DNA of 64,000 nucleotides. Source: Planctomycetota bacterium. Its GTDB lineage: Bacteria > Planctomycetota > UBA1135 > UBA2386. Shown piece by piece: positions 2,437 through 58,695 of the stretch. Each line of letters begins with the position of its first letter. Position 1 is the first letter of the stretch. Location of the stretch: positions 4,704,001-4,768,000 of the forward strand of contig OZ245838.1 of NCBI GenBank assembly GCA_965228735.1. Reading direction: 5' to 3'. Both the position numbers and the translations under genes were made by a program. The notes under the pieces were generated by a model. The model was given only the letters and a program-made list of their open reading frames with translations, was not told where the DNA came from and searched no databases.

Positions 2437-2830
2437 GACTGCTCCTTTTTCGATAGGGAAACCACATGGCAAGGCTCTGCCTCGAGGCGTCCTCGAGGTC
2501 AGTGCAGTCACTCCTGCCGTCGGCCCGCTCATGCGGTCTCTTTCCCCCGGCGGTCGCACCGTATCGCCGGAATCGATGTCAGCAACTCCCTCGTCCGGGG
2601 GGCGCCTCGCTCCGCCGATGTAAGTGCTGTCTTTCCATCGCGCACGTCGTGGCGCCCGATTGTCGTAGCTCGTGTTGCGCGAGAGGCGTGCGTCTTGGCA
2701 AGACTCCGGCATTAAGAAAGACACAAGAATCTGCTCAGGAGCGTGCGGACGCGCGGGGTAGGCATCTGCACCCGATCTCGGCGCGAGGGATGCCGCGCAA
2801 GGATTGGGCGACGAAGTCCTGCCGGCGGCC

Positions 2831-9175: not shown

Positions 9176-9203
9176 CGGTCGCATTTCGGCAGGCATGTGA
9201 CCC
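9176..9203 (-). other. dif-like recombination site 1
   Basis: Reverse complement reads GGGTCACATGC-CTGCCG-AAATGCGACCG. Confidence 0.6.
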
Positions 9204-12754: not shown

Positions 12755-14035
12755 TTATTCGAACTCGGAGTGCGGCGACCTGCCCGGCAAGCTCGGACAT
12801 CGACTCGCGACTCGGCACCAAGGGTAGCTAGCGGTTGCGGGATCGAAGTCGCGAACGACGTAGACTTCATCGAGTTGCCGCAGCGATTCGAACCCTGTGC
12901 TCCGAGCTCTATCGATGAACTCATCCCAATCGACAAACGGCTCGGACGTGTGGACAACGAGCCATCTTTCAGCATAGGGCTCACGATCAATCGTGAACGG
13001 TTTGCTGTCCTTCACCTGGATGAGACGCTCCACTTCGTGATGTAGGTCAGCAGCGCTCCAAACCCTCACCTGTTCCGAGTGGGTGGTGAGCGCATCGAGG
13101 CGTTCGGCAGCAGTTTGGGCGGCCTGCATCGCCTGATAGCGCTCCCGCGAGCGCGGGATGTTGCGCTCGATCAGCTTCTGGTCGGTCAGTTCGACGACTT
13201 CGAACCCAATCAAGCCACCGCATTCGTCACGCCCAAGAACATCAGGAGGCGTCTGCGGCTTGGTCTCGACACGGGCCTGGACAGATCGCACTTTCCGCAC
13301 ACCCGCAGAGTTGAGTGAGTCTGTCAGGTCGCGGACGACTCCCAACTCGACGAGCTTCTTGTCGGGCCACGCACGGCCGCCGCCTGGCACCAGCATTCTG
13401 GGGCAGCGCCGGGCGCTAGCGCAGATTTCGCTGTGATCCTGAATGAGGCGGTGGACCCTCGACCCCAGGCCAAAACCCAGTCGGCTTGACAGATTCGCAG
13501 CGCGGACTGCTACCTGGCTAGCAGATGGGAGCGGCTCTAGGTTCACTTCGATCACGCGCTCCGACAACGCTGCGACAAAGCCAGCTTCGAAGACGGCGCT
13601 TGTGCCGCCGAGCTCGACCGCGACAGCTTCGATGTTCAGCGACGTCGTTCGCGGCAGGTTTGGGAAAATGGGACCTCGAACTAGTTGTCGGCGAAAGGCC
13701 CATGTGTCGCGCAGCGGCCACAGATCGAACGCCACGCCATCCGCGATGGCCCGGACACCACCAAATGCCGTGTGAGAAACTGCCTGAAGACCGCAAGCAC
13801 GAACCAGCGAATCGAGCTCGGTAGGACTTTCTACGTCCACCGCGATATCGATATCGCGCGGCTTGGCGTGAGCCCCCGAAAGGACGGCGTCTCGGACTAG
13901 CCCCCCAAGCACGAAGCCTCTCGTGCCGGATTGGTTCAACTCGTTCGCCACGACGTGAACGAGGCGCGCCGCTGGGGTTTCCTGCTCCAACCACAGGTCG
14001 AAACACCTACGAATCCATGCAGGATCAACCACCAC
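12755..14035 (-). CDS. CCA/poly(A)-polymerase-head nucleotidyltransferase fused to a PD-(D/E)XK-like C-terminal domain
   Basis: FVLGGLVRD...PRDIDIAV at the N-terminus; PPDV...GFEVVEL at the C-terminus; probable GTG start overlaps the dGTPase stop. Confidence 0.72.
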   Translation of the reverse strand: MVVDPAWIRRCFDLWLEQETPAARLVHVVANELNQSGTRGFVLGGLVRDAVLSGAHAKPRDIDIAVDVESPTELDSLVRACGLQAVSHTAFGGVRAIADGVAFDLWPLRDTWAFRRQLVRGPIFPNLPRTTSLNIEAVAVELGGTSAVFEAGFVAALSERVIEVNLEPLPSASQVAVRAANLSSRLGFGLGSRVHRLIQDHSEICASARRCPRMLVPGGGRAWPDKKLVELGVVRDLTDSLNSAGVRKVRSVQARVETKPQTPPDVLGRDECGGLIGFEVVELTDQKLIERNIPRSRERYQAMQAAQTAAERLDALTTHSEQVRVWSAADLHHEVERLIQVKDSKPFTIDREPYAERWLVVHTSEPFVDWDEFIDRARSTGFESLRQLDEVYVVRDFDPATASYPWCRVASRCPSLPGRSPHSEFE

Positions 14036-15401
14036 GGATCTCCTGGTGTAGACGACAAGCGTAGCCATCCGTCATTCCACACACATGATCCGTGACGAGC
14101 TGAAGCCGTAGATACTCCTCGGGCAGGCCGCCTCCCCAGTTCTTCTCAAAGACTCGCCGGTAGTTCTCGGAGATCAGGCCGTAAGCGCGGGTTGCAATCC
14201 CTTCCCGAATCTTCCGGTCTGGAGCCCCAGGACCGGCGTGCGCTGCCCCCATCCAGAAGAAGTCCATGAGGTTGCTGATGACGCGCCGACCGAGCAGTTC
14301 CAGCTTGACCGTTTCTGCACTCGGGTAGACGTGCGTTCTGGCGAACTTCTTGCACTTGTCGATCAACTCACCCTCTTCCGTGCCGTCCAGCAACTCGCCA
14401 TGGAATCTGCCCTCGACGATCTCTGACCGAATCTCTTGGAATCTTCGACACGCCGCCTCAGCCGCCTTCGCGATGAACTTCACGCGAAAGAACTGGGAGA
14501 GGGCCTCCTCTAGAGCTTGGCCGGAGAGGTTGCTTGCATGCTTCTCGATGTATTGACGCGACTCGCTGGCGAGCTTCTCCCCGATCGCGGACGTGGAGAT
14601 TGCCGCTTCGACCGCTGCCCATGACGTGACGGCCTTCTTGACGCCGTCTTCGATATCAACCACTGAGAAGCAAATGTCGTCAGCCGCTTCCATGAGCAGC
14701 GTGAGCGGATTCCTGGCACCGTCAGGAACATCCGTGTGCTCTCGCACTTTCGCCACGAGTTCCGCCTCGGACTGAAAGAACCCGGGCTTCTTGACAGCAT
14801 GCAGCTCGCCAAGCCCGTCCGACGACGCAGCATACTTTTGCAGCGCCGACATGGTGGCACAGGTCAGGTTGAGCCCGTCATCTCGAGCGAGAATCTGCAG
14901 GCGAGACACCAACCGGATCGTCTGAGCATTCCCTTCGAAGTTCTCGAAGTCAGTGCGATGGGGGCCCGAGAGATTCTTGATCTGGTCATCTCCAGCGTGC
15001 CGAATGAACCAATCGCGAATCGCTCCTTCGCCAGCGTGTCCGAAGGGCGGGTTCCCCAGGTCGTGCAGAAGGGCGACTGTCGCGACAATGGTCTCGATCG
15101 ATCTAGCGGCCTGTGCGTCAACCCGTCCCTCGCCTTCCTCCGACGAAGCGACGCAGCGAGCCAAGCCACGGGCAACCGACGAAACCTCCATCGAATGGGT
15201 CAGGCGTGTCCTGACCGCATCCGTGGGGTCCAAGGGAAAGACCTGAGCCTTGTCCTGGAGCCGCCTCACCGGTGAGCAGAAAACAGCCCGCCCGTAGTCT
15301 CGATCGAACGGAGTCCGTCCAACGTCGTCGGTCTGGTCGGGATCGCCGTCGGGGAGATCGGCGATGCGAACGGCTGACAGCAGCTTGTCCCAAGTCATCA
15401 T
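14025..15401 (-). CDS. dgt: dGTP triphosphohydrolase (HD domain)
   Basis: RRLQDKAQVF, RTRLTHSMEV, HDLGNPPFGHAGE, FEGNAQ, EAADDI and GMTD motifs. Confidence 0.93.
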   Translation of the reverse strand: MMTWDKLLSAVRIADLPDGDPDQTDDVGRTPFDRDYGRAVFCSPVRRLQDKAQVFPLDPTDAVRTRLTHSMEVSSVARGLARCVASSEEGEGRVDAQAARSIETIVATVALLHDLGNPPFGHAGEGAIRDWFIRHAGDDQIKNLSGPHRTDFENFEGNAQTIRLVSRLQILARDDGLNLTCATMSALQKYAASSDGLGELHAVKKPGFFQSEAELVAKVREHTDVPDGARNPLTLLMEAADDICFSVVDIEDGVKKAVTSWAAVEAAISTSAIGEKLASESRQYIEKHASNLSGQALEEALSQFFRVKFIAKAAEAACRRFQEIRSEIVEGRFHGELLDGTEEGELIDKCKKFARTHVYPSAETVKLELLGRRVISNLMDFFWMGAAHAGPGAPDRKIREGIATRAYGLISENYRRVFEKNWGGGLPEEYLRLQLVTDHVCGMTDGYACRLHQEIRGG

Positions 15402-15962: not shown

Positions 15963-17873
15963 ATGGCCCAGAAGGACAACCAGCTCTGGAACGAACTGCT
16001 CGACATCAGGGAGCTGAAGAAGGGGTGGCATCAGGCTCACCACGAGTATCGGCGCGACTTCGCCGAAGATCCGTTGCATGTCGATGCATACGCCGCTGCG
16101 CTCGACAGGCACCTCGCCGACATCCGCCATCGGCTGAGTCGTGGCCGCTATCGACCTCGGCCAGCCCTTCGGTGTGAGGTCCCGAAGGGGCCTCTGGGGT
16201 ATCGCCCCGGGACGGTGATCGACATCGAGGATCGCGTCGTTCTGTATTCCGCGATCCGGCAGATCGCACCCGCGATCGACGAGCAACTCTCGGATTCCGT
16301 GTTCAGTTGGCGTCTCAAGAACCCGCTCCCGCGGAGCGACTGGATGTTCAAGGACACCACCATCGAGGACATGCCGTATCTCAAGAGCCGAACGGTGTCG
16401 AACCACATCGACCAGTTCGAATACTGGCTCTCGGCGTGGCCGGAGTTTGATAACGCCGGGCGAGCGGCGTTCACCGAGAAGGGGCATCGTTTCATGGCGA
16501 CTTGCGACATCGCCGCCTACTTCGAGAACATCCACCTCGGGATACTCCGTGACAAGCTGATGCAGTGGGTCCCGATCGAGCCGCGCATCATCAACCTCAT
16601 CGTGACGTGCCTGTCCTACTGGTGTCCAAGAACACCAAGCGGCGGGAACGAAGCACGCGGGATTCCGCAAGGGACCGGCGTTTCAAGTTTCCTCGGCAAC
16701 GTCTTCCTGAAGGGCCTGGATGACCGGCTCGAAGAACTCGCCAAGCAGTGCGAAGCGGACTACCAGAGATACATGGATGACGTTCGCTTCTTCGCCAAGC
16801 GACGCGAGGATGCTCGGCGTGCGATCCTGATCATGGAACGGACGTTGCGTGAACTGCATCTAAACGTGCAGTCCGCGAAGACCAAGATCCTCGACGAAGA
16901 CTCGGGAGAGATTAGCGAGGCGCTTGTGGATCAGCGTCTGGACGACATCGACGAGATGGAAGACGAGATTCGGGCGCGAGACGAAGACGACGAGGCTGCG
17001 AAGCGTGGCTTCCTAGCGAACCTCAAGCGCCTGGAAGGACGACAGTCGCGGAGCGACAGGCAGGCCATCAAGGCGGCGAGGAAGCCTCTGACTGGCCTCA
17101 CGTTGAGGCTGTTCAAGCGGTGGGTATCGTGCCACAGGTTGCTTGGCTCGCACGACTACGTGAAGCGGCTTCAGAAAGAGGTGGAGCGTACCTCGGACGC
17201 CAAGCTGACGAGCATCATCATACGCACGGCTCGTGACTTCCCCTCCCTACGGTCGATCGCGGGGTGGAGCATGAAGTTCATCCACAGCGAGCTGAACGTG
17301 TTCGCTCACCAGGAAGCGGAGTTACTTCGGGCGATTCGGAATCTCGCGCGGGTCCCCGAGGACGCCGCTGACCACGCTTGGAAAGTCCTGTTGGACACGG
17401 ATGCAGACCCATACCTCAGGATGCAGGCGGGGTTCCTGCTGTCGAGGACGGAGTTGACGAAGCAGCGCCTTAGCACGGTCGCGAACCGCTACGACCAGGA
17501 AACGGACTCGTTCGTGTCGCCCGTCTGGTGTCTCTTGCTGATCCAGCGACGGAGGCAGAGCGAAGTGCTGTTGGCAGACATGATGTCCGATCCCGTTGAC
17601 CGCGTCAGAAGGCTGGGGTGGATGTTCTACCGAGCTGCCAAGGACGAGGCGTGGTGTCGGAAACAGCTCGACTACGTGTTCGGCCCGGTGCGCGCAGCGC
17701 GCCTGTCCGGCTACATGCCGATTGTCTGGGCTGCGGCAAACTGTGGGACACAGGCGGTCCAGCGTGCCCTATTGGAAAAGGTCAACGTCGCGAAGGCGGC
17801 TTGCCTGCACGTTGATCTGCGTCCAACGCTCGAGGCGATCCAGGCACGATTGGAACGGGCTGCGACCGCGTAG
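15963..17873 (+). CDS. Reverse transcriptase, UG/Abi (DRT-like) type, with helical-repeat C-terminus
   Basis: VPK...RP, DIAAYFENI, GIPQG, YMDD and NVQSAKT motifs; no retron NAxxH/VTG motif and no maturase domain seen. Confidence 0.9.
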   Translation: MAQKDNQLWNELLDIRELKKGWHQAHHEYRRDFAEDPLHVDAYAAALDRHLADIRHRLSRGRYRPRPALRCEVPKGPLGYRPGTVIDIEDRVVLYSAIRQIAPAIDEQLSDSVFSWRLKNPLPRSDWMFKDTTIEDMPYLKSRTVSNHIDQFEYWLSAWPEFDNAGRAAFTEKGHRFMATCDIAAYFENIHLGILRDKLMQWVPIEPRIINLIVTCLSYWCPRTPSGGNEARGIPQGTGVSSFLGNVFLKGLDDRLEELAKQCEADYQRYMDDVRFFAKRREDARRAILIMERTLRELHLNVQSAKTKILDEDSGEISEALVDQRLDDIDEMEDEIRARDEDDEAAKRGFLANLKRLEGRQSRSDRQAIKAARKPLTGLTLRLFKRWVSCHRLLGSHDYVKRLQKEVERTSDAKLTSIIIRTARDFPSLRSIAGWSMKFIHSELNVFAHQEAELLRAIRNLARVPEDAADHAWKVLLDTDADPYLRMQAGFLLSRTELTKQRLSTVANRYDQETDSFVSPVWCLLLIQRRRQSEVLLADMMSDPVDRVRRLGWMFYRAAKDEAWCRKQLDYVFGPVRAARLSGYMPIVWAAANCGTQAVQRALLEKVNVAKAACLHVDLRPTLEAIQARLERAATA

Positions 17874-17946: not shown

Positions 17947-18819
17947 CTACGCCCCAACCGCCGCCCGCAGCCGCCCCCTGTCCACCCGCGCGTAGATCGC
18001 CGTCGACACGACCGATGCGTGGCTCAGCGCATCCTGAACTAACCGCAGGTCGCCGGTCTTCGCGAGCAGCCCGCAGGCGAACGTGTGCCGCAAGCTGTGC
18101 GCGCTCTTGCCGCGGATCTCTGCCTTCGTGAACCAGTCCGAGATGCGTCGCTGCGCGTGCCGCGTGGACACTCGCCTCCTATCCGCGAGGAATACCGGTC
18201 CCGATGCTCGATCGCCGACGAATCCGCGCAGTTTGCTGGCTAGCGCCTTCGGCACGAGCACCGTTGACGGCCGGTCGTTCTTCGCACGTCGAACCGTGAT
18301 CTCGCCGTGCTCGAGGTCGAGGTCCTCGATGTTGAGCGCAAGCGCGCTGCCTATCCGCATGCCAGTGCCGAGCAGCAGCTCGATGAGCATCCGGTCTCGC
18401 TCCGCATGCTCGCCCGTGGCCGCGGCGAGCACTGCGAGCAGCCGCTCATGCTCGTCGGCGTGCAGTGATTTCGGAGGGGGCGGGGAGCATCGAGCTCGAC
18501 GCAGAAGCCGTGCGGGGTTCGCGGCGACCAGTCCGGCGTCGTGAAGATGGGCGCAGAAGCAGCGGACGCTCGTACGCATCGCGTTGAGCGACGTGTTCTT
18601 CTTCGAGCCGCCGTGGCTGCTGACGCGCGCGGCGTCGTCAGCGAAGAACTGGGCGAGCAACTCGCGGCTCAGGCACGCGACCTTGCGTTCTGCGTCGCGG
18701 TCGTGAAGCCAGGCGATCAGCGCGGTCACGTGACGGCGGTACTGGTTGATCGTGTGCGGCGAGCGGCCGTCGGCGCGGAGCTGCACCAGGAAGGCTTGGA
18801 GGGCGTCTTGGAGGTCCAT
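17947..18819 (-). CDS. XerC/D-like tyrosine recombinase (element A)
   Basis: GMRIGS, AKND, HSLRH, LSH, IYA; same 873-bp length as the paralog at 53607. Confidence 0.92.
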   Translation of the reverse strand: MDLQDALQAFLVQLRADGRSPHTINQYRRHVTALIAWLHDRDAERKVACLSRELLAQFFADDAARVSSHGGSKKNTSLNAMRTSVRCFCAHLHDAGLVAANPARLLRRARCSPPPPKSLHADEHERLLAVLAAATGEHAERDRMLIELLLGTGMRIGSALALNIEDLDLEHGEITVRRAKNDRPSTVLVPKALASKLRGFVGDRASGPVFLADRRRVSTRHAQRRISDWFTKAEIRGKSAHSLRHTFACGLLAKTGDLRLVQDALSHASVVSTAIYARVDRGRLRAAVGA

Positions 18820-19183
18820 GGCTACATGCAGCCATGGGCGGGCCGGGGTCATCAAGTCACATTCCTGGGTCGACTGGCTCAGCAACAAGCAGTCCGTTTG
18901 TGTCCCAATTATCCCGACTCCATCAGCGTCCCTTGAACGGCCTGCCCAGTTCCTCACCATGTCTGATGGCCGACCGTCGCTTACAGCTCTCCGGTTGGTC
19001 AAGCTCGGCCCACCGACTCGCCAAAGGGCGGTGGGCTGGGCGTTCACTCGTGGCCGGGCATCGGAAAAATGGCCCAGGCTCGGGCATGGCAAGCCTGGGG
19101 CCGGGCAGCCGAGCTTCCATGCTTTGGCCCGGCTGCCGGAGTTCAGGCTAGCATTACGCCCCGATCTGACACAGTGGCAGATT

Positions 19184-19210
19184 CACCGTTGAAACACCGT
19201 TGACCAACGG
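19184..19210 (+). promoter_or_regulatory. Palindromic accessory motif CACCGTT-N4-AACGG, copy 1
   Basis: TGAAACACCGTTGACCAACGG; matches 28282-28302 at 20 of 21 positions. Confidence 0.55.
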
Positions 19211-19227: not shown

Positions 19228-19255
19228 GCGTCACATTCGGGGGGAAATGCGACGC
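19228..19255 (+). other. dif-like recombination site 2
   Basis: GCGTCACATTC-GGGGGG-AAATGCGACGC, about 400 bp upstream of the XerC-like gene. Confidence 0.62.
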
Positions 19256-28211: not shown

Positions 28212-28281
28212 CCTTCGATCCAGGGAGTATTGCCCTTCGCGGATCAGTCAATGCCGGGTCCGCTACGCCAGCTTGACCCGC

Positions 28282-28304
28282 TGAAACACCGTTGACTAAC
28301 GGTG
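28282..28304 (+). promoter_or_regulatory. Palindromic accessory motif, copy 2
   Basis: CACCGTT-GACT-AACGGTG. Confidence 0.55.
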
Positions 28305-28328: not shown

Positions 28329-28356
28329 GCGCCGCATTTCCCCGAGCATGTCGTCA
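28329..28356 (-). other. dif-like recombination site 3
   Basis: Reverse complement reads TGACGACATGC-TCGGGG-AAATGCGGCGC and contains the HNH stop codon. Confidence 0.58.
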
Positions 28357-28788
28357 TTCGGGACTGGCCTCGTCCTCGCCGCGGTCATCGGGATCGAATG
28401 CAGAACCCTCGAACGGATCTGATTCAAGATCAGCATAGTCTTCGACAGACAGCGTGTCCCCCGGGTCATCCGTCCGAGAGCGGACGGGAGGGCTTCGCAG
28501 CCCTTCGTGGTTCGGTTCTTTGCGATGGCAGTTCCGGCAGAGCCACCGTACGTCCTCGAGGTGTCTCAGCTCGTCGAAAATGTGGTCGTAGTTGACGTGG
28601 TGTACGTCGAAGGGCAGGAGGTCTTGATCCTCCTGCACTCTTGAACATTCGACACCTTCGCACCGTCCGTCTGCCCTGTGCATCACTGCGCGTCTAACGC
28701 GTTGCCATGCACTGCTTCGGCGGTATTCAAGGTAGCCGAGAGCGCGATTGGCGGCTGGGTCCCAGCCTTCGATTTCCCATTGCTCCAT
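28354..28788 (-). CDS. HNH endonuclease
   Basis: W..VR..V..RA.GRCE...DVHHVNY...LCRNCH. Confidence 0.85.
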   Translation of the reverse strand: MEQWEIEGWDPAANRALGYLEYRRSSAWQRVRRAVMHRADGRCEGVECSRVQEDQDLLPFDVHHVNYDHIFDELRHLEDVRWLCRNCHRKEPNHEGLRSPPVRSRTDDPGDTLSVEDYADLESDPFEGSAFDPDDRGEDEASPE

Positions 28789-28815
28789 CGTCGCATGCTA
28801 CAGGAAATGCGACGT
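28788..28815 (+). other. dif-like recombination site 4
   Basis: TCGTCGCATGC-TACAGG-AAATGCGACGT, abutting the HNH start codon. Confidence 0.62.
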
Positions 28816-28834
28816 CGCAGTCCCGGTCTCGTGG

Positions 28835-29182
28835 CTAGGAGCAGGCGTCCCACACTCCATTGCATGTTCCCACGGCTTCGTCGGTGCAGCAGTACTCTAC
28901 GCCGCCCAGACATCGACTTCGACCGTCTGCGCAGTGTTGGCTGGCCTGGCGAGGTGTGCCGAGACTGAGTCCTTTAGGGATGCGGATCCCCAGCGCACGG
29001 GCTCCTCGCCTAACGTACACGAGCCGCGCACTCTCAAACTGCACGTCTGATGATCGCATCTCAATTGCCACACGGGGATGGTCCCGTGGGAAGAGCACGG
29101 TAGATGTTGCGTCGATTTGAGCTTTGCCTCGGAATCGAAGCCACTCGGGTTGCGTGGGGTGTTGGGGGCTATTCGATGACAT
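28835..29182 (-). CDS. Small protein with six-cysteine C-terminus
   Basis: Ends HCADGRSRCLGGVEYCCTDEAVGTCNGVWDACS. Confidence 0.55.
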   Translation of the reverse strand: MSSNSPQHPTQPEWLRFRGKAQIDATSTVLFPRDHPRVAIEMRSSDVQFESARLVYVRRGARALGIRIPKGLSLGTPRQASQHCADGRSRCLGGVEYCCTDEAVGTCNGVWDACS

Positions 29183-29199
29183 GGACAGCCTCGTAAGTT

Positions 29200-29814
29200 C
29201 TACGGTGCGGAGAAGATGCTGATCGTGCAGAGCGTCAATGCGACAATCATTGACAGGCCTGCCAGGGCGAGAATGCCTGCGCACGCAAGCTGCACGGGCT
29301 TGCGAACATGTTCTAAGGTCTCTCTCGCGTGGACCGCGAAGTCCTCCATCTTGAGATCTGTGAGATCGTCCAAGCTGGTCAGCAGCTGGCTGTAGTTCGC
29401 CTTGTCGGGGAGTTGTCCCAGGCCGCAGAGCTTGCGGAGATGTGCGAGAGTGTTCCTAAGATCGCGCTCACCGATGACATCTTTGTGAGCTCGGAGATCC
29501 TTCTTCCAGAGGTTCCAGAGTTCGCTCGTCCCCCCTTGGTTGGCGGACTCCTTGAGCGCGCGAGTCGCCTTAACGGTAGCTGGCGCAGCGATTGTCACCA
29601 ATGCCGCGTATGCGGCGAATGCTATCGAGGACGCAACAGCAAGTTGAGTCCTGAGCGGAAGGCTCTTGCCGAACAAGGCTAAGCCGTCAGCTAGCAGTGC
29701 GAGTGCGAAGAGTGTTGCGATCGACAACGGGCTAGACAGACGAAGCGCCAGCAGGTGCGACCAGTTGAGCCAAGAGCGAAGGCGGATGGCGAGTTTCGAT
29801 GGCAACTTGGGCAT
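29200..29814 (-). CDS. Hypothetical membrane protein
   Basis: About three hydrophobic segments; abuts the upstream gene. Confidence 0.6.
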   Translation of the reverse strand: MPKLPSKLAIRLRSWLNWSHLLALRLSSPLSIATLFALALLADGLALFGKSLPLRTQLAVASSIAFAAYAALVTIAAPATVKATRALKESANQGGTSELWNLWKKDLRAHKDVIGERDLRNTLAHLRKLCGLGQLPDKANYSQLLTSLDDLTDLKMEDFAVHARETLEHVRKPVQLACAGILALAGLSMIVALTLCTISIFSAP

Positions 29815-30315
29815 TCAGAAGAGCCTGAGGATTCCGTGGCCGGCAACCCCGACCCATAGCACTAGAAACAGCCAGGGCGTCAATCGACCCCAGTTCTTCG
29901 TGGACAGCCCGTCTCGTAGGAAGCTCCGGCGTGGTCGAAAGTAGTCTTCGGTGTCCGGCCGCGCCGTCAGCATCCGCCTCCCTTCGGGAACGACGGAGAG
30001 CTCCAGTCTGCGGATCAGCTCCTCCTTGTTTCTAAGGTGGTAGAGGAGCCGTGCTGCAGACGTGGCCCAGGCGAAGGCGAGGAGCGTCCCAGCACATCCA
30101 ACAGCGAGAACGATGCTCGCAGGAAGTGCATCGAAGAGTCTGCTTTCCTTGCCGCCGCTCAAGAGCGCCGCCATCAAGGCCGCGAACGCGACTAGCCCAG
30201 AGTGAAGGGTTGCGAAGACCCGGAAGACGTTCCAGAAGTGCTGGCTTGCCGAGGACCGAGTCGCGAAAAGAAGCTTGAGCTGCTCAGCAGCACTGATTGT
30301 TTCTTCGGGGTGCAT
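29815..30315 (-). CDS. Small 3-TM membrane protein (defence-effector-like architecture)
   Basis: FW...F..L.SGL, G.LL...W......Y....IRRLE and a C-terminal TM segment. Confidence 0.6.
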   Translation of the reverse strand: MHPEETISAAEQLKLLFATRSSASQHFWNVFRVFATLHSGLVAFAALMAALLSGGKESRLFDALPASIVLAVGCAGTLLAFAWATSAARLLYHLRNKEELIRRLELSVVPEGRRMLTARPDTEDYFRPRRSFLRDGLSTKNWGRLTPWLFLVLWVGVAGHGILRLF

Positions 30316-30702
30316 CGGCTGGGCTGAGTTGTTGTTGCGTTATTGGACGTAGGACACGCTGAGATTGCCGTTGGCGGTCAACACGATCGAGACATGGTCG
30401 TCGCCAGTTGGATCCGAATGCCCCTCTGGTCCAGACTCTTCGTGGTCCCACTCATCGTCGCCCTCGTGATCGCCCCGATCTGTTCGGAAGATGTTGGCTG
30501 CAGCTCTCGGAAGGCGCGGTTCTCTTCAAGCAGGTAAGCGATCAGTCGCGATTGATTCACGGTTGACGAAGCCTGCGAACGTGATCAGAAGCAGCTTTAG
30601 GGGGAGGTCAGCGGCCATCTGGCCGGATCATCGGCATCTGGGTGACCGATGTAACTCTCACTGGCCCAACGCGATCGAGTTTCCGAGTACCACGCGCTCG
30701 CC

Positions 30703-34955: not shown

Positions 34956-34982
34956 AGGGCGTCTCGGCCCTTTACCTAGTTG

Positions 34983-37900
34983 ATGACCACGAACCTGATC
35001 GCAGTTCGCTCGCCGTCGGCTCGCGTCGATTCCTGCTCAAGCAACGGGTCTGCCAGTCGCCGGGAATCTGCCCCGCTCTCAGGCTGGGCCCGACGCGCCG
35101 CGCTCTTCACGCTTGGGTGCATCCTGTTGGCGATCAGCGCCCCCGCTCAAGGCTTCTACATGGGTCAGGGCAATCGATGGGACCAAGGCACGTCCGCCTC
35201 GCAAGAGGCCCCCGACGAGACCGGCGCGGACGATCCCTGCCCGCCGAGCGGTGGCTCCACAGTCGACGTGAATGGCGATCCGGAGATCAATGATGGCCGA
35301 GAAGGCCGGACCATATTCGCGGGATCCGAACCGCAGTACGAACTCTACTTTCCGCGAATCCTCCCTGATGGGCCGGTCCATTTGGACGTGGTCGATCCGT
35401 GCCCTGGAGGTGGGGATGAGTGCCCCGGTGGTTGCGGAGCCTGTATCGAGGCGCCCGTTGGGGAAGCCGAGGGTGGCGCGCCTACGCCGACTTGGAGCCT
35501 CATGGTTCATGCGCCGGGAACCTCGAACCCCGCGAGCTCGCCGCACACGACCATCGGATACAAAGCGGCCGAAGGCGTATTCTATCATTTCCCGCATGAC
35601 GCAGGCGTGGCGCCGACCTCGTTTGAGCGGCGGTATGTGGATGGAACGGTCGAGAAGTTCGAACATGTTCACACATTCGGCAACGGCGACCGTCGCTTTC
35701 GACCGACCGAGCGTATCGACCCGTACGACAACCGCACCGTGTGGGAGTACAACGGCCCCGACGGCCGCGTGTCGCGTGTCTTCTTCCCGGACGGTGTCGA
35801 CCAGGTATGGGATTACTCGCCTAGCTGGATCGACGACCCCAACACGCAAGACGTCGAAGGCTGGTCGTCGGTGTATTACGCTGGCATCGAAGTGCGCTAC
35901 GTCGACCGGCTGAACGGCGACCAGGACCTCGGCCGAACAGAGTATCGCTTGTTCAAGAAGCGCACCGACGCGCAGGGCAACCTCGTTGGCAACACCCGCC
36001 CTTACGACGGGGATCCGTTGTATCGAATCTACCGACCGTCGGCAGAATCGCTCGACAGCCTTAGCGCCACTCAGCTGCTAGACGGCACCCTCTACGACGT
36101 TGCAACAGACGATGCTCGATACCCGGTCGTCGAGTTCGAGCACCTTTCGGGTGAAAGCTATATCACGAAGATCAGCCGCTTTACGGCCGATGGCGTGTTG
36201 CCGACCTCCAGCACGACTACGCCGCAGGAGATCGTGTCGTACACCTACGTCACGGTCGGTGCGCGCATGCGGGTGCTCAAGGAAACGCAGGCTCTCACAG
36301 GGCGCCAGTACGACTTTGTCTACGAGGTTGATGTCGACAGCAACAACCGGGTTCAGCGGGTGATACGAACCGACCACGATGGCGTTGAGGTGGATTGGAC
36401 GCTCGACGACTACAACCGTGTGCTGACGATCAAGACCACGCCCCCAAGCAGCAAGCTACCGCGCGCCTCGGACCCGGACAGTGGTGGATTCGATGCGCCG
36501 GCGAATATGACGCGGACGTTCACCTACTCGGGTTGTAGTCAGTGCAGCGGCAAACCATCGACCATCGAAGACCAGCCGAGCGGCCGACGTTGGGAATACG
36601 ACTATGACTTAGTGACCGGCCTGCTCGAGGAGAGTCGAGTCCCGGATCCTAGTGACGGAGTCGGTTTCGCAGTCACGAAGTTCACGTGGGTCCCCTCCAC
36701 TTCGGGCGACTTCTACGGCCAGTATCGACTGAGCAGCGTCGAGAGCGCCGACAACAAGATCACCACGTATGCCTACGTCGACACGGCACGCGTGGATGCG
36801 AGCTGGGGCGTCAAGGCGTCAGAGATGACTGTGAGCTCGCCGCCGACGACGATCGGTGGCACCACGGGCACTGTCGTGATCGAGCGTGAGACCAAGTTCA
36901 ACACCAGCTCTCCCCCGCTTGATCAAACGAATCAGCAGGAGGGACTCGTTGGCCAGGTGTCCGAGGAGACAGATGCGGACGGTGTTACGACTGCATTCAC
37001 CTATGATGCCCGCGGTCGACTGACGACCATCCAACGGCAGGGCGCGACGGAGACGGTTACTGCGACCACAGCCTTCAGTCTGCTCGGCGAGCTCTTGGAG
37101 ATGCGCCGTCGCGTTGGCTCGACGCTGCAGCTCGTGGAGAACTACACCTACGACGCCGCCGGGCAGCTGAAGACCAAGACATATACCGTCAACGGCCAAC
37201 CGCACGAGGAGCGTTTCTTCTACGACAGCTTCGGTAATCTCGTCGTGCACCAGACGAAGAACCGCACGCACGCCGGCCTCGCCCCGAACGACTTCGGGCC
37301 GTCGCCTCGGACCGACGCCGCGCGCGACTGGCTCCGCAACGAGTGGCACTACGAAGGCAACCGGCTGCGCGTGGCGTTCCTCGATCGGCGCGCGTTGGAT
37401 CGTGATGCGGATACACAGGATCCGGTCGCCGATGACCCCGACGCGAGGTTCGCGCGGGTGGACTACACCTGGAGCGCCGACGGTTGGCTGCTTCAGGTTG
37501 CGCACGCGAACGGGTCGGTGACGGCTCACGAATATGACGGTTATGGTGCGCTCTACCGGACCGATCGGCGTGACGGCGCAAGCTCCGTTAGTATGTTGGT
37601 GGGCAAGTTCTTCGTGAACGATGACCTGGAGGTCGTCAAGGAGTATCGGAGCACGGGCAGTGAAGACCTTGCGACGCTCCTGACTCGCAATGCGGCCGGC
37701 TTCGTCGAGGAGGTGCTCGAGCCCGAAGTCACGGCCCCAATCACGGGGATGGCCGTGCCCGCGTTCGCGAAGCGCGAGTTCGACTGGGACGTCATGGGCC
37801 GCCTGGTCGAAGAGCGAGTTCGTGATGGAGCGTCGCCGCATGCGCTGCGTGCAACCCGCTCGACGACCTATGACGAGATCGGTCGCCCTTACATCCGGAC

Positions 37901-40900
37901 GATTGTCGACCCCGGTGGAGCAACGCAGACGTTCACCACGCAGTGGACGGGTGGCGGCCAGCCGACGCTCACCACGGGGCCGGGCGGCCGAGCCGTGGAG
38001 CGGACGTTCGACGATCTTGGCCGGCTAAAGCGTATCTACCGCGGCGGTTCGGGAGCGAATCGCGACTTCGTGGAGTTCTTCTACGCGGCCGGGACGGACC
38101 TCGTCGACCGCACGGAACACAACGACTGGGACGACCTGAAGTCGGGCGGCGCCGGCCACGTTACGCGGCAGAAGGTCTACGAGCGCGACGCGCTCGGGCG
38201 CGTGTTGACCCTGCGAGATGGTCCGACTGGCAACTCGCTCGACCATGAGTTCGAGTATTACTCTACAGGCTTCACGGAGAGCTACACTGACCCCGCGGGC
38301 AAGGTCCATAAGTACCTCCCCGACGCCATGGGCCGCATTCGCGAGCATTCCCTCCCCGCGACGGTCGCCGCGCCGATTTGGAACGAGGTGCGCTATCTTG
38401 ACTGGACGGGCGGCTCGGACAGCTCCGAGGTCGTGCGCACCGATGGCCGCGGCCGCGTGACTCGCATCATCCGGGACTTTGCTGGTCGCGTCACTGTGGT
38501 GATGAATCCCGGGGCGTCCACCGAGCCAACTGCGGCGAGTCCGTCGCAGCCGTTCTCGCAGTTCTTCGAGTATGACGGCGCGTCGCGCGTGGTCGGTGTT
38601 CACCAGGGCGACGACGCGCACCTGCAGCTCGACCGCGACGGGATGGGGCGTCTGATCGTTCGCACGGTGACTGCCGGCGATTCGGATTACGTGTCGGCCT
38701 TCTACGGCCGGGACATCCTGGGGCGCGACGCGCTTGGGCAGGTCGTCCATAGCTACTCGCGCTTCGGCCTGAACGGCGTCGCCGGCCAGTATCTGGAGCA
38801 AGACTACGAGCGCGACGCTCTCGGGCGCACACACCGCGAATCGTTCCGCTACGAGGCGCCGCCCTGGGGCCCGAGCAACTGGGTCGACATCGAGAGCACG
38901 TTCTCGGGCGGCGACTGGTTCCGGACGGGCGTCGCCTACCGCAATAACCTCGGCAGCGGCACGGATGACCTCGAGCTCTACACCGCTCCAGACTCCGTCG
39001 GGCGACTCGCTACGTTGCAGTGGAGCTCGGACGGCGGCACCACAGTGAGGTCGCTCGCTGCCTACGTGCACCACGGCTGGCGGATCCGCCAGCGCACGAC
39101 GCACTGGGACGCCGGGACGAACGACAACTTCGACACGACCTACAGTTACGACGACTACGGTCGCATGGACGAGATCGAGCAATCGTTTAGCACAGGGGCG
39201 AACGACGCGGACGTCGCCTTCAGCTACGATGTCGCAAGCAACCTGATCAGCGAGGTCTACCAGAAGCAGGATGGCAGCGATGGCGACCGCTTTGAATACG
39301 ACGAGCACCACCGTCTCGTGGATGCGTGGCTCGGAGCTGACAGCACGGAGCTTGCCAATCCTGGGACTGGGACGTTCGTTCGTCGCCTGACCTACGGGTT
39401 GGACGCCGCGAACAACCGTTCGCAGGTCGACGACTACCTGAGCTCGCCCGGGACCACGACGACCACGACCTACGCCGTGGACGCGGACCCGCCGACGGTT
39501 TCGAACCCAGACAACCGCTACAACGCGGTCGGTGGCGTCACGTTCACCTACGACGAGCGTGGCAACACCACGTTCGACGGAAACCTCTACTACGTCTACG
39601 ACGCGCTGAATCGTCTGTCGGAGGTCTACCTCCTGGTCAGCGATGACACGACGGAGAGTTCGTCGGCAATGTCCGGAGGCTCGACGTCCCTGACCACCAT
39701 GTCGTCGTTGCGGCGACTGGAAGTGGCGTCGGGTCCATTCGTGATTCAGAACCAGCAGGTCCTGGCGGATGCTCGCGAGCGGATGCTGAGCGGTGTGCCT
39801 GGCGGTGCCGGCGGAATTCTGTGGCGGAGCCGTGAGCCGCTGTTCCGTGAGTATCTGAAGGAGTCGATTCCGTCGCAGGGCGCATGGCGCACGAGCGGGG
39901 GCTCGTCAACGACGTCGACCTCCAGCCTTGGCGGAGCCGAGTCCGCGACGCTCCATTTGGTCGCGGTCTACCAGTACGATCCCTCCAACCGCCGGGTTGC
40001 GCGGCTGCTGATGCCTTCACCGGATGGGGAGCCGGGTCAGTACTTCTTCTATGCCTGGGATGGCTGGCATGAAGCCGAGGAGCTGACGTCAAACCTGCAG
40101 AGCACGCAGGTCGTGCCCGAGCGCCAGTTCGCATGGGGCGAGCAGCTCGACGAACTGGTTGCGTATCGAATCCGGCAGTCGGGTTCGGGGTTTGCGGAGT
40201 ACTTTGTCGCGGAGGGTGGTGCGCACTGTCCTTCGCGGCTGCTCGATGACTCGGGGAGCGTCGTCGAAATCCAGGAGTATGGGCCTTACGGCGCGGTGTG
40301 GCACTTCTCGGGAGCGGGAGTGCCGAGGTCCGGATCAGATGCTACAGTCGGCAACGTCTTCGGATGGAAGATGATGCGGATCGATGGCGAGACAGGTCTC
40401 GGTTACAGGCGAAACAGATTCTACTCCACGAGTACGGGCCGATTCATGTCCGTCGACCCTTCCGGTATTTGGTGGGATGCTCACGGATTAGGTAATGGTT
40501 ATGTGTACGCGGGTAGCCGGCCGTTGACACATAACGATAGGATGGGATTGCAGGCGGATCCCGGTGCGCAACCGGACTTTCGATCCTTGCTCCTCGATCC
40601 ACTGCGAGACTCACTATCTGATGCCGCAAAACGGGAAGCGAAGGACAGTCTCTTGAAGCCAATCGGCGACCGCGACTACGGAGATGTGCGTTGGCCTGAC
40701 CTGGGGCGGATCCAGACGGACTTCAGCAGAAACTTGCGCCGTGCTCTGGAGGAGGCTGGCAGTGACTATAGGTGTCCCCCCTTTGGCAGTGATATCGGCG
40801 GGTATGATGACGATCCCTACGACCCCTGGGGGTCAAAGATCATTAGTGGAACGCTCGCGAAATGGCTTAGTGACTATCGCGGAGACTCTTGGAGGTTGAG

Positions 40901-41270
40901 AGGTTCATTGTATGGAGACCTAGTTCCCGGCGACGATTACCTCAGCGGTTTTGAGATGGGACTTGGCGCGGGGGTCATCATGGGGGGGAGGGCTGCTTTC
41001 GGGTATGGCGAAGCCGATGCGAGTTGGCTCGAGGGCGGTTCGTGGGCTGCCCTGGGCGCAGGTCTCGGCGCAGCCGCTGGTGGGATGCTCGGAGGCAGTG
41101 GAGCGCTAAGCGGCGCCGAACTGGAACTCTCAGTGACTCTAGGCGGCGGGAGTTTCGACCCTCTAAACCGCGGGAGTTTCAACCTTGAGGTCGAAGTTGG
41201 TTCAGACATCGGCTCCTTCCGTCCGGGATCTGCCGAGCAATACATTTGGGTAGGGTTCAGTATGAGATGA
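34983..41270 (+). CDS. Large RHS/YD-repeat protein with signal peptide and C-terminal variable domain
   Basis: Many YD dipeptides (YDARGRL, YDAAGQL); RHS core D.ETGL.Y.RNRFY...GRF.S.DP; PLTHNDRMGL in place of PxxxxDPxGL. Confidence 0.93.
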   Translation: MTTNLIAVRSPSARVDSCSSNGSASRRESAPLSGWARRAALFTLGCILLAISAPAQGFYMGQGNRWDQGTSASQEAPDETGADDPCPPSGGSTVDVNGDPEINDGREGRTIFAGSEPQYELYFPRILPDGPVHLDVVDPCPGGGDECPGGCGACIEAPVGEAEGGAPTPTWSLMVHAPGTSNPASSPHTTIGYKAAEGVFYHFPHDAGVAPTSFERRYVDGTVEKFEHVHTFGNGDRRFRPTERIDPYDNRTVWEYNGPDGRVSRVFFPDGVDQVWDYSPSWIDDPNTQDVEGWSSVYYAGIEVRYVDRLNGDQDLGRTEYRLFKKRTDAQGNLVGNTRPYDGDPLYRIYRPSAESLDSLSATQLLDGTLYDVATDDARYPVVEFEHLSGESYITKISRFTADGVLPTSSTTTPQEIVSYTYVTVGARMRVLKETQALTGRQYDFVYEVDVDSNNRVQRVIRTDHDGVEVDWTLDDYNRVLTIKTTPPSSKLPRASDPDSGGFDAPANMTRTFTYSGCSQCSGKPSTIEDQPSGRRWEYDYDLVTGLLEESRVPDPSDGVGFAVTKFTWVPSTSGDFYGQYRLSSVESADNKITTYAYVDTARVDASWGVKASEMTVSSPPTTIGGTTGTVVIERETKFNTSSPPLDQTNQQEGLVGQVSEETDADGVTTAFTYDARGRLTTIQRQGATETVTATTAFSLLGELLEMRRRVGSTLQLVENYTYDAAGQLKTKTYTVNGQPHEERFFYDSFGNLVVHQTKNRTHAGLAPNDFGPSPRTDAARDWLRNEWHYEGNRLRVAFLDRRALDRDADTQDPVADDPDARFARVDYTWSADGWLLQVAHANGSVTAHEYDGYGALYRTDRRDGASSVSMLVGKFFVNDDLEVVKEYRSTGSEDLATLLTRNAAGFVEEVLEPEVTAPITGMAVPAFAKREFDWDVMGRLVEERVRDGASPHALRATRSTTYDEIGRPYIRTIVDPGGATQTFTTQWTGGGQPTLTTGPGGRAVERTFDDLGRLKRIYRGGSGANRDFVEFFYAAGTDLVDRTEHNDWDDLKSGGAGHVTRQKVYERDALGRVLTLRDGPTGNSLDHEFEYYSTGFTESYTDPAGKVHKYLPDAMGRIREHSLPATVAAPIWNEVRYLDWTGGSDSSEVVRTDGRGRVTRIIRDFAGRVTVVMNPGASTEPTAASPSQPFSQFFEYDGASRVVGVHQGDDAHLQLDRDGMGRLIVRTVTAGDSDYVSAFYGRDILGRDALGQVVHSYSRFGLNGVAGQYLEQDYERDALGRTHRESFRYEAPPWGPSNWVDIESTFSGGDWFRTGVAYRNNLGSGTDDLELYTAPDSVGRLATLQWSSDGGTTVRSLAAYVHHGWRIRQRTTHWDAGTNDNFDTTYSYDDYGRMDEIEQSFSTGANDADVAFSYDVASNLISEVYQKQDGSDGDRFEYDEHHRLVDAWLGADSTELANPGTGTFVRRLTYGLDAANNRSQVDDYLSSPGTTTTTTYAVDADPPTVSNPDNRYNAVGGVTFTYDERGNTTFDGNLYYVYDALNRLSEVYLLVSDDTTESSSAMSGGSTSLTTMSSLRRLEVASGPFVIQNQQVLADARERMLSGVPGGAGGILWRSREPLFREYLKESIPSQGAWRTSGGSSTTSTSSLGGAESATLHLVAVYQYDPSNRRVARLLMPSPDGEPGQYFFYAWDGWHEAEELTSNLQSTQVVPERQFAWGEQLDELVAYRIRQSGSGFAEYFVAEGGAHCPSRLLDDSGSVVEIQEYGPYGAVWHFSGAGVPRSGSDATVGNVFGWKMMRIDGETGLGYRRNRFYSTSTGRFMSVDPSGIWWDAHGLGNGYVYAGSRPLTHNDRMGLQADPGAQPDFRSLLLDPLRDSLSDAAKREAKDSLLKPIGDRDYGDVRWPDLGRIQTDFSRNLRRALEEAGSDYRCPPFGSDIGGYDDDPYDPWGSKIISGTLAKWLSDYRGDSWRLRGSLYGDLVPGDDYLSGFEMGLGAGVIMGGRAAFGYGEADASWLEGGSWAALGAGLGAAAGGMLGGSGALSGAELELSVTLGGGSFDPLNRGSFNLEVEVGSDIGSFRPGSAEQYIWVGFSMR

Positions 41271-42911: not shown

Positions 42912-43240
42912 AGTGTGCAACACAGTGTGCAACAGAATGTGCAGTGCCCTCGTTCACACCCTGACACGATTTGGCACAATGTGGCACAACCGCGCGACGC
43001 CCTGATCGCCACATCGCCCGACACGTGGCGCAGATAGGCACGATCTGGCACTGCCTGTCACACCCTGGCACAACCCCGCGCTCCGTCTTCGAGTCCTGCA
43101 GGGCCTATCACTCGCACTCCTCGAATGTGGCCGTTGACGGCCGATTCGAGGGGGTTCGGGGTCTGGGCGAGGGGCAGTGTGCAACAGAGTGTGCAACGGT
43201 CTTGTTCACAGCCTGGCACGACGTGGCACGATCTGGCACG
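42912..43240. repeat. Arm-type and Xis-type repeat arrays flanking the att core
   Basis: AGTGTGCAAC(A) pairs at 42912/42924 and 43176/43188; TGGCAC repeats at about 10-bp spacing on both sides. Confidence 0.75.
43088..43107 (+). other. att core: tRNA 3'-end fragment (isotype not assignable)
   Basis: TTCGAGTCCTGCAGGGCCTA reads as T-loop, 3' T-stem, acceptor strand and discriminator, with no 5' tRNA half upstream. Confidence 0.62.
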
Positions 43241-44945: not shown

Positions 44946-45410
44946 TTACGCGCCTGAGAACATTTTCGGCACCGGAAACGTCCCCGGCACCTCCCGGAAC
45001 AGGTCGTCCTCTCCAAGTTCGCCGTAGAGGTCCATCGTCAGCCGGATGTCCGAGTGCCGTAGGACCTGCTGTATGATCTTCGGGTGGACGTTGAGCTCGA
45101 TGAGGATCCGGGCGCAGCTCTTGCGTAGCGCGTGGAAGTCAACGCGTCGGGTCGTAGCACTGCGCTGCGGCGTCAGGCCGGCGTAGGCCGCGTCCTTGCG
45201 CACGATCTCGGCGATCTTCGAGGGCACCCGGAAGACGGGGTCCGTCTCGCGCACCGGGCCAGCGAGGCGCTCCATCTGTAGCTTGCTCCGGCGAGTCCGC
45301 ATGTTGCGCAGGGCTTGGGCGACGAAGTCCTGCAAGGGCACGAGAGCGTCGTCGCCGTTCTTCGTGAACTGGCCGGCCAGGCGCACGCACGGCTTGTCAC
45401 CCGAGCGCAT
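44946..45410 (-). pseudogene. C-terminal integrase fragment
   Basis: Begins at G.KPCVRLAGQF, lacks GFRANE; near-identical to 47950-48380. Confidence 0.88.
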
Positions 45411-49413: not shown

Positions 49414-49706
49414 CGATGGCCCTCCGTTTCGAGTTCGGGGAGCAGTTGGCCGAGGACCTCGCGATCGATTCCGCGGCGAGTGCTGTCGTCAGCCGGGCGT
49501 ACGACGCTGTGGCGTTCGCCGGATCTCGAGATGCGCTTTGGCCAGGACAGTCCAAGGGCGCCGTCCGATTTCCGCCGCAATGTGACGCCGTCTACGACGA
49601 GGTTGCCGTAGTAGAGCGACAGGTAGCCGAGTAGCCCCCCGCGGACATCGGCGTCCGAGGCACGAACCCAGGTCCTGACACGGATGGTGGGTGACGGAGA
49701 GCTCAT
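49410..49706 (-). CDS. SpoVG-like protein
   Basis: GLLGYLSL...VDGVTLR...LSWP...VRP. Confidence 0.68.
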   Translation of the reverse strand: MSSPSPTIRVRTWVRASDADVRGGLLGYLSLYYGNLVVDGVTLRRKSDGALGLSWPKRISRSGERHSVVRPADDSTRRGIDREVLGQLLPELETEGHR

Positions 49707-53606: not shown

Positions 53607-54479
53607 CTATCGGCCGACTGCGACACGCAACCTTCTGCTATCAACGGACGTGTAGACCGTCGTCGACATGATCGAGCGGTGGTTCAATGCCGCCTGGACG
53701 ACTCGCAAGTCGCTCGTGCGGCTCAGAATCCTCTCGGCAAAGCTGTGTCGGAACGCATGGGCGCTCCTGCCAGTGATCTGGGCCTCGGCAAGCCACCCGG
53801 CGATCCGGCGTTGTGCGTGACGCATCGATACGCGGCGGTCGCCAGCCAAGAACACCGGACCGTCCTGACGTCCACGTAGGAAGCGCTGGATCTTCCGGGC
53901 GACCGCCTTCGGCAGCAGCGCCGTCGCTGGCCGATTACCCTTCGCGGAGCGCAGCGTGACCTCGCCGTGGGCGAAGTCGATGTCGCCGACATCGAGCGCG
54001 ATTGCGCTGCCGATTCGGATCCCACTCGCAAGGAGAAGTCGGATGAGCATCGCATCACGCTCGGCCTGCGGGCCTGGTGCGTTGGCGAGGACTGCGAGCA
54101 GGCGATCCTGCTCGTCCTGGCGCAAGGCTCGTGGCGGTGGGGGAGAGCACCTTGCTCGCTTCAGGAGCCGTGCGGCGTTCATCGGTGCGAGGCCGGACTC
54201 GTGCGCCCACTTGAAGAAGCAGCGCAGCGAGGTGCGCTGCGCGTTCGCCGACGTCGCCTTCTTCGTTCCGCCGCGCGCGCTGAGCTGTGCGGTGTCCGAG
54301 GCGAAGAATTCAGCGACGACCGCGGGCGTCATGGCCTCGATGTCGGTTGGTCGGTCAGTCGACGTGAGCCAGGCGATCAGGCTCGCTACGTGTCGCTGAT
54401 ACTGCTTCCGGGTGTGCTCTGATCGGCCGTCGGCTTGGAGTTGAACTTGGAAGTGCCCGAGGGCGTCTTGGAGGTGCAT
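53607..54479 (-). CDS. XerC/D-like tyrosine recombinase (element B)
   Basis: GIRIGS, AKGN, HAFRH, LNH, VYT. Confidence 0.92.
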   Translation of the reverse strand: MHLQDALGHFQVQLQADGRSEHTRKQYQRHVASLIAWLTSTDRPTDIEAMTPAVVAEFFASDTAQLSARGGTKKATSANAQRTSLRCFFKWAHESGLAPMNAARLLKRARCSPPPPRALRQDEQDRLLAVLANAPGPQAERDAMLIRLLLASGIRIGSAIALDVGDIDFAHGEVTLRSAKGNRPATALLPKAVARKIQRFLRGRQDGPVFLAGDRRVSMRHAQRRIAGWLAEAQITGRSAHAFRHSFAERILSRTSDLRVVQAALNHRSIMSTTVYTSVDSRRLRVAVGR

Positions 54480-54561
54480 GCCGCCATGAGGCCATCGTCC
54501 GGAACCTGCGTTCAAGTCGCATTCCGCCGCCCCTGTCGCTGCAACATCCAGTCCAGGGCCG

Positions 54562-54589
54562 ACGTCACATTCGGGAGGAAATCGGGCTT
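54562..54589 (+). other. dif-like recombination site 5 (right arm degenerate)
   Basis: ACGTCACATTC-GGGAGG-AAATCGGGCTT; 19/20 identical to 19229-19248. Confidence 0.5.
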
Positions 54590-56363: not shown

Positions 56364-56674
56364 GTCGAACCGGCCTTGGTTGGGCGGAGGTGCTCTCCGG
56401 CCCCATTACACCCGGCGCGGGCTTGGAGGTCAGCGGAATCCCGCGCGCAAGTCTCGGCCGCAGAACGAAGCATGAGGGGTTGAGCACCTTGACGTTCCGC
56501 TGAGACCTCATCTTGCGCTATCGGGCGTGCAGGTCGCTTGATGATGGGGCCGCCTCGAAGAACTAGTTCTCACCGCGCGTGGCTCGTCGTCGGAAAGCCG
56601 GTTGCTCCAACGAGAGGCCGCGGCTCTCCTCTTGGCATTGACAAGCTGCGGCAAAAGGACCGACACTTCCCCCG

Positions 56675-57079: not shown

Positions 57080-57086
57080 TGCATCG

Positions 57087-58667: not shown

Positions 58668-58695
58668 ATGGCGCATGCCAAAGGAAATGCGCCCC
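58668..58695 (+). other. dif-like recombination site 6
   Basis: ATGGCGCATGC-CAAAGG-AAATGCGCCCC. Confidence 0.55.

Follow-up and report, generated by a model that had tools for sequence, protein, structure and literature searches.

An HNH gene enclosed by two inverted sites

The window, by which we mean the whole stretch of 64,000 nucleotides of planctomycete DNA analysed here, carries at 28354..28788 on the minus strand a gene for an HNH-type nuclease, whose 144 codons run from an ATG at 28786-28788 to a TGA at 28354-28356. The gene is flanked by two inverted copies of a 24-bp polar motif. Site 3 (28331..28354, minus strand) is composed of a degenerate A arm, ACGACATGC, the spacer TCGGGG and the B arm AAATGCGGC, and its A arm faces the stop of the gene. 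Site 4 (28790..28813, plus strand) is composed of the A arm GTCGCATGC, the spacer TACAGG and the B arm AAATGCGAC, and its A arm faces the start. An earlier sequence-only reading had described this open reading frame with its start and stop positions and its two inverted flanking sites, all of which we could confirm. It had also placed the start in contact with the arm of site 4 and the stop inside the arm of site 3, which is literally correct on a 28-bp frame. Among 139 sites, the outer two bases of the 11-bp arms are unconserved and the conserved unit is 9-6-9 (24 bp); measured on this unit, a gap of 1 bp separates the ATG from site 4, and of the TGA only the final base falls within site 3.

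In the A arm of site 3, a G replaces the C that 200 of the 201 family sites described below have in this position. The score of the site, 16.7 bits, lies just below the threshold of 17 bits that we used for sites, and for this reason site 3 was added to the pair counts by hand. A chance origin of the sites is excluded, since six other sites in the window score above 16.7 bits, against a mean of 0.025 expected by chance in 40 resampled windows, and since a 4.69-Mb stretch outside the islands contains one match at 17 bits or more.

The encoded protein of 144 residues comprises an HNH/zinc-finger core at approximately residues 11-95 and an acidic tail. Its fold is predicted with high confidence over most of residues 11-90, with the high-confidence elements E60-64, E80-84 and H85-90, and with low confidence in the tail. 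In an alignment of 40 sequences (the HNH protein and its 39 best matches), C43, C48, H63, H64, D79, C84, C87 and H88 are conserved in at least 90%. Together, the alignment and the predicted structure display the features of an HNH endonuclease, namely the HH motif, the zinc-finger cysteines and the beta-beta-alpha core. The protein matched ten HNH families among the PHROG profiles (best E 2.9e-8) and had no match in a Pfam search at 0.01. A fold search of the PDB gave nothing at E 0.001, and its top matches, at E 0.34 or worse, are HNH domains, the best of which (E 0.34, non-significant) is the HNH protein of phage GVE2. An identity as ZorE of Zorya II was rejected because the match reached 24.6 bits against a cut-off of 600 and covers the HNH domain only; likewise, the three scanned genes adjoining the HNH gene gave no Zorya match. 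The most likely reading of the protein is that of a small nuclease belonging to defence-type cargo, in keeping with the defence-like genes in its neighbourhood. We regard the HNH cassette as one ordinary passenger, the interest of which lies in the slot that it occupies.

Tandem elements at a tRNA gene

The window lies within an island of lower GC content that starts at a tRNA-Met gene (G000:4702569, G000 being the source genome). In the island, copies of the tRNA 3' end stand between successive tandem elements, and the copy at 43088..43165 (plus strand) is the att junction between two tandem integrated elements. The first element carries genes for an integrase, a primase-polymerase, a ParB-methylase, a DUF5681 protein, an RHS protein and, at 17947-18852, an XerC-like recombinase. 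The ParB-methylase and DUF5681 genes lie 1-3 kb from the HNH gene. The 3' end of the integrase gene is present in three tandem copies at 2790-4382, spaced by about 503 bp and 98-99% alike, reflecting either a duplication or an assembly artefact, and a further integrase 3' fragment is found at 44946-45397.

The neighbouring cargo includes a UG21-type reverse transcriptase, a dGTPase-like gene, a PDC-S31-like DUF2971 gene and TIR/ThsB-like genes. The reverse transcriptase (15963-17873, plus strand) has RT_UG21 as its best PADLOC match (E 5e-119); the dGTPase-like gene (14025-15401) adjoins it, and both are inside the module between sites 1 and 2. A cluster of TIR-domain genes at 55011-58669 and 46449-47768 comprises a ThsB-like gene, a PDC-M50A/B-like pair and two TIR-pentapeptide fusions. 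The RHS-repeat gene at 34980-41270, with about 2,050 codons, stands at the end of the element, and it has RHS relatives in the sister element as well as at 3.79 Mb and 5.22 Mb of G000. An 8xMP-family membrane protein (Pfam PF24838) is encoded at 29815-30315 on the minus strand, in a module that is duplicated in the sister element.

A family of polar sites and its likely recombinase

We collected 201 distinct copies of the site family. The consensus reads GTCRCATKC for the A arm and RAATGCGAC for the B arm, separated by a 6-bp spacer that mostly ends in GG, and this polar two-arm layout holds in the logos of both 139 and 201 sites. The source genome contains 12 sites, nine in the island of the window and three in a second island at 7.16-7.19 Mb. 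In the window, site 1 (9178..9201, minus strand) has the spacer CTGCCG, and site 2 (19230..19253, plus strand), upstream of the recombinase gene, has GGGGGG. The second element carries a site at 49563..49586 (minus strand; CGGCGG), another upstream of its own recombinase gene at 54564..54587 (plus strand; GGGAGG) and a third at 58670..58693 (plus strand; CAAAGG). The second island (G000:C1:7155000-7193928; L003 and L004) has its three sites and shared cargo and no copy of the recombinase gene, and may be served in trans.

The XerC-like recombinase of the element (17947..18852, minus strand) has the make-up of a tyrosine recombinase, with a SAM-like domain, a catalytic domain and an intact R-K-H-R-H-Y set, and exceeds the cut-offs of Pfam PF00589 and PF02899. 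Residues R166, K191, H252, R255, H278 and Y287, which we take to form this set, are invariant in six sequences. The next tandem element encodes a second XerC-like recombinase at 53607..54515 (minus strand), 57% identical to the first. The first recombinase falls short of the family cut-offs for XerC and XerD (144 bits against 335 and 125 against 330) and for the integron integrase IntI (82.6 against 265), and is 30% identical to the nearest Xer protein of the host; in 72,556 plasmid records, nothing matched it at 1e-30. Among recombinase matches with at least 56% identity, 48 of 57 have a site within 700 bp upstream, as compared with 3 of 46 below 56%; these counts are not deduplicated and include the two genes of the window. 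Of the 18 genomes that have the close recombinase clade, 17 contain the site pattern, as do 14 of the 321 other genomes; a reversed-pattern control gave zero in every row. This association is partly circular, since G000 and a few of its relatives served to define the pattern. On these comparisons of sequence, the recombinase of the element is likely the cognate enzyme of the sites, rather than XerC and XerD of the host.

The genome G028 of another family has nine more distant copies of the recombinase (46-51% identity; L012-L020). Its sites have variant A arms ending in ATAA or ATAG and lie several kb from the recombinase gene instead of adjoining it. A further conserved motif, built from CCGTTG/CAACGG repeats, is found at 28278..28302 (plus strand) and beside sites in other elements. 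This three-unit motif recurs at 19186-19210 in the window and has 19 matches in all, within about 40-220 bp of a site and flanked as a rule by the site on one side and the recombinase or a backbone gene on the other, making it a candidate operator or binding site for an accessory protein.

The sites had been called dif-like, a term that describes their arm-spacer-arm layout well and their sequence poorly. The canonical dif of the host is located at G000:C1:1261983-1262010, 10 kb from the GC-skew maximum at the terminus, and each arm of sites 3 and 4 shares with it 3-4 of 11 bases. Sites 3 and 4 are, by this comparison, not the host dif. We nevertheless considered a model of true dif modules, in which host XerC and XerD, or host XerC together with the enzyme of the element, act on the sites. 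The host has two Xer genes, xerC- and xerD-like, scoring near 297 bits on the XerD model; the sites share the arm-6-arm layout and the alternating polarity of dif modules, and some A arms, for example those of G028, resemble the XerC-side arm of the host. The poor match of sites 3 and 4 to the host dif, the loss of the XerD-side arm and the finding that the sites track the recombinase clade of the element across genomes make this model improbable.

Sites as junctions between modules

The module to the right of site 4 (28789..30498) is 98% identical to G000:4773004-4774713 in the sister element, which has a different gene to the left of the site. The identity starts at site 4: as compared with the site at G000:4773005, which has the same spacer, the right flank matches at 59 of 60 positions and the left flank at 5 of 40. 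Site 4 is thus a proven module junction. We also considered whether G000:4773005 represents an empty allele of the HNH cassette and rejected this, as the site there has an A arm on its left and another gene as its left flank. A hidden TC-type site was sought in the sister element between 4769387 and 4773005, where an insertion sequence is present, and none was detected at 6 bits or more.

For the family as a whole, modules occur in differing company with junctions at the sites; the HNH gene itself is seen in one context. Among 147 sites, 22 pairs share the B flank only and 35 the A flank only. In a stricter comparison of 201 sites, 13 pairs with a kept B flank show no difference at spacer positions 1-3, and eight of them have identical spacers. 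The 16 pairs with a kept A flank differ at spacer positions 1-4 in 6, 6, 11 and 7 cases, respectively, and ten of them have two or more spacer mismatches; many of these A-kept pairs are related sites upstream of recombinase genes and are not independent. The constancy of positions 1-3 in the former and their variability in the latter suggest that the spacer travels with the B side. The mismatches in the A-kept pairs, six of which differ at position 1, imply that the matching rule is looser than we assumed or that these pairs are old.

Adjacent sites are arranged as 36 A-inward, 31 B-inward and 29 direct pairs (29 of 96, some of which may hide an undetected site). Near-empty modules, in which an inverted pair of sites is separated by 14-76 bp, occur in both polarities (L012:1447-1568, L016:1053-1175, L018:2692-2815, L107:4507-4600 and L119:76-169, as well as L208, L209, L213 and L224).

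Spacer pairing and a recurrent one-gene slot

Neighbouring sites avoid spacers that begin alike. None of the 96 adjacent pairs has identical spacers, and a single pair shares the first two spacer bases, against 9.6 expected by resampling; among the 67 inverted adjacent pairs there is none. At the same time, particular combinations of spacer beginnings recur, namely TA/TC, GA/TG and GT/TT. In 9 of the 36 A-inward pairs, with 0.8 expected, one spacer starts with TA and the other with TC, a count that is inflated since five of the nine modules come from regions picked for TA spacers; the other four, that of the HNH gene included, were unselected. The genomes and loci are related among themselves, so that the p-values in this work are overstated.

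The nine TA/TC modules, from six genomes, contain one gene each, encoding proteins of 144-353 residues that have no pairwise BLAST match. The margins between site and start range from 1 to 61 bp, eight of the nine genes read away from the TA site, and the HNH cassette is the tightest of all. Two such modules in G018 share a common outer flank at the TA site and carry different genes. The recurrence of the same spacer pair around unrelated single genes points to cassette exchange. The proposal of a minimal single-gene cassette is therefore well founded, since this spacer pair encloses unrelated genes in eight other one-gene modules and since the junction at site 4 exists with a second left neighbour. 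Searches with Pfam and PADLOC could name only a few of the cargo genes in other modules (DUF4145, DUF4238, FRG/PDC-S15 and a beta-propeller-like match), and seven genes gave no match in each of two further scans.

It had been suggested that the same HNH gene be sought between such sites elsewhere, and our searches returned no such case. The closest of its 673 distant relatives is 44% identical over 72 residues. Members of the HNH family are present in 12 of 339 genomes of the class, and none of their 23 loci outside G000 has a site at 14 bits or more. No copy of the gene was found in 247 loci, and the sister element and the fetched related elements lack such a gene. Because it was not found in a second place, the movement of the HNH gene itself is inferred from the class of modules to which it belongs.

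We also weighed a cut-and-paste model, in which the inward A arms are the ends of a non-autonomous mini-element that leaves as a circle with a mismatched core and is reinserted between B arms. Excision as a circle with a mismatched core is the behaviour of Tn916-like elements. Such a model accommodates the two inner arms of one type pointing outward, as well as the A-side modules with different spacers (the ten of 16 pairs above). It also predicts empty sites of the B-B type, whereas all collected sites were scored as A-spacer-B, a form that the scan favours, and it predicts free combinations of spacers instead of the recurrent pairs. We consider this model quite unlikely.

A possible promoter within site 4

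The sequence-only reading had concluded that the cassette leaves no room for its own promoter. A promoter scan found no sigma-70-type promoter with a -35 box. Site 4 provides a predicted -10 hexamer, TAGCAT (28795..28800, minus strand), made of two spacer bases and four A-arm bases and lying 6 nt before the ATG, which renders the conclusion doubtful. In 658 upstream regions of the host, defined from genes of a simple in-house caller, TAnnnT occurs 24, 16, 12 and 19 times at 6, 7, 8 and 9 nt before the ATG and about twice per position further out, with no clear -35 consensus. Thus, 6 nt is the commonest leaderless spacing of the hexamer in this host. In the discovery set, a start codon lies 1-4 nt from the arm at 4 of 8 sites with a TA spacer and at 1 of 135 others. 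This strict leaderless test did not replicate on held-out sites (1 of 13 against 1 of 40, p 0.43), and a looser test with a start within 100 nt gave 6 of 13 against 6 of 38 (p 0.053). We put the predicted promoter within site 4 at about an even chance. Alternatively, the gene could be expressed by read-through from the same-strand genes at 29200-30315. The main text of PMC9947245 holds no passage on promoters.

Fixed or invertible orientation

The tight fit between inverted sites had been read as a possible inversion switch. According to such a model, a recombinase would flip the gene, which would be on beside the hexamer of the TA spacer and off beside the TC spacer. The inverted orientation of the sites and the formation of the TAnnnT hexamer by site 4 only are compatible with it, as is the observation that the spacer tends to accompany the B flank, a behaviour required by such a switch. 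In one of the nine TA/TC modules (L218), the gene points toward the TA site, opposite to the other eight and as a flipped state would be; a rare past inversion is therefore possible. The spacers of sites 3 and 4, however, differ at three of six positions, and PMC13141974 reports inversion of pdif modules only between spacers that are identical or have one mismatch. Moreover, site 3 lacks the otherwise nearly invariant base of its A arm, and all 67 inverted adjacent pairs differ in their first two spacer bases. Eight of the 24 listed runs, which consist of contigs only and may drop rare variants, show no joint at the sites that changes strand. In six runs, contigs cross site 3 with the reference orientation, and one contig extends over both sites; the uncovered parts in X12, X14 and X16 were left out of the evidence. 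The eight runs comprise long pieces without differences, probably of one strain and one of them maybe the source, so that rare inversion is possible. Since the cores of the inverted sites differ, the cassette is likely no on/off flip switch, and we judge the inversion model very unlikely.

The model of a phage-type packaging leftover or selfish insertion that fits between the sites incidentally, with the GVE2 protein as best (non-significant) fold match and the nearby ParB-methylase and DUF5681 genes in its favour, is the least likely of all, given that the sister and fetched related elements lack such a gene and that margins of 1 and -1 bp together with the spacer pair of eight other one-gene modules are hardly an accident.

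Proposed exchange of cassettes in register

The HNH gene is probably a one-gene cassette in a tRNA-integrated element, swapped for unrelated genes by the XerC-like recombinase of the element rather than flipped, similar to the way in which plasmids of Acinetobacter exchange resistance modules. Each end of the cassette would recombine only with a site whose spacer begins alike. If recombination indeed takes place only between spacers with the same beginning, as we infer, the two ends could not react together, and the unlike spacers of sites 3 and 4 would lock the orientation of the gene. Two successive exchanges with another element, either a tandem neighbour or a co-resident circle, would then replace the gene in register, and tandem elements at one tRNA gene could serve as a cointegrate-like intermediate. 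The TACAGG sites at G000:4732790 and 4773005 are identical direct repeats, 40.2 kb apart. The exchange would occur at the edge of the A arm and need a match over the first spacer bases, whereby the spacer would stay with the B side. One-strand exchange leaving a mismatched remainder is known from IMEX elements, as described in PMC5357621, and the exchange of an individual dif module through matching spacers on each side, via a cointegrate, is proposed in PMC13141974. Transcription of the gene would be leaderless and driven by the -10 hexamer within site 4; the decay in the A arm of site 3 may by now hold the present HNH copy in place.

A more far-reaching and rather doubtful idea is that of a natural cassette-exchange system, in which the enzyme reads the first spacer bases as a key, mobile elements have fixed slots whose single-gene content can be swapped and is neither flipped nor lost, and the TA/TC slot comes with a built-in promoter. 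If this were true, a gene landing in a TA/TC slot in the right direction would be expressed at once from a leaderless or short-leader mRNA. The natural site pairs are numerous and amount to a ready map of the spacers that exchange with each other, so that a single protein and sites of 24 bp would be enough to test how single modules are replaced. Should the system be confirmed, the enzyme could be used, together with its collection of non-cross-reacting sites, as a tool for cassette exchange.

Comparison with known systems

Our searches of openly accessible papers brought up no account of this family of sites, nor of dif-type modules that bring a recombinase of their own. The closest counterparts are the dif modules (pdif) on Rep_3/OrfX plasmids of Acinetobacter, which PMC13141974 describes as found uniquely in this genus and as run by host XerC/XerD. 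Both systems have polar arm-6 bp-arm sites that bound modules in two kinds of inverted pairs, variable spacers, one-gene and near-empty modules and, in the present element probably, single-module replacement between matching spacers (PMC13141974). In contrast, the sites described here are unlike the host dif, and the recombinase gene stands beside them inside the element. The carrier is a chromosomal element integrated in tandem at tRNA-Met instead of a plasmid. Neighbouring sites also avoid matching spacers here, and 29 of 96 adjacent pairs are direct. XerS/difSL and XerH/difH likewise combine one Xer-like gene with an adjoining asymmetric cognate site; according to PMC5357621, they resolve chromosome dimers at one terminus site, as opposed to 12 island sites here. 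Unlike in those systems, the host here still has xerC, xerD and dif of its own.

Like the HNH cassette, invertible switches (fimS/FimBE, shufflons and the invertons of Bacteroides, for example) consist of a short segment flanked by inverted sites, with a tyrosine recombinase close by. They need matching crossover cores and show both orientations, whereas the cores here are unmatched and both orientations were not seen in the eight contig runs. Integron gene cassettes hold single genes in tight succession, preceded by little DNA or none and in many cases defence-like; in their tightness, these cassettes resemble that of the HNH gene. Their attC hairpins form a direct array, in contrast to the short, inverted 24-mers of double-stranded type found here, and the enzyme of the element stays far below the IntI cut-off mentioned above. 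In the laboratory method of cassette exchange with heterospecific lox sites, unlike spacers block inversion and deletion, and a donor bearing an equal pair can still take part in an exchange. The counterpart here would be natural, and what has to match seems to be the first two or three bases of the spacer. Taken together, the element likely follows the logic of dif modules with a different site sequence and a single enzyme of its own, by which it would shuffle defence-like cargo.
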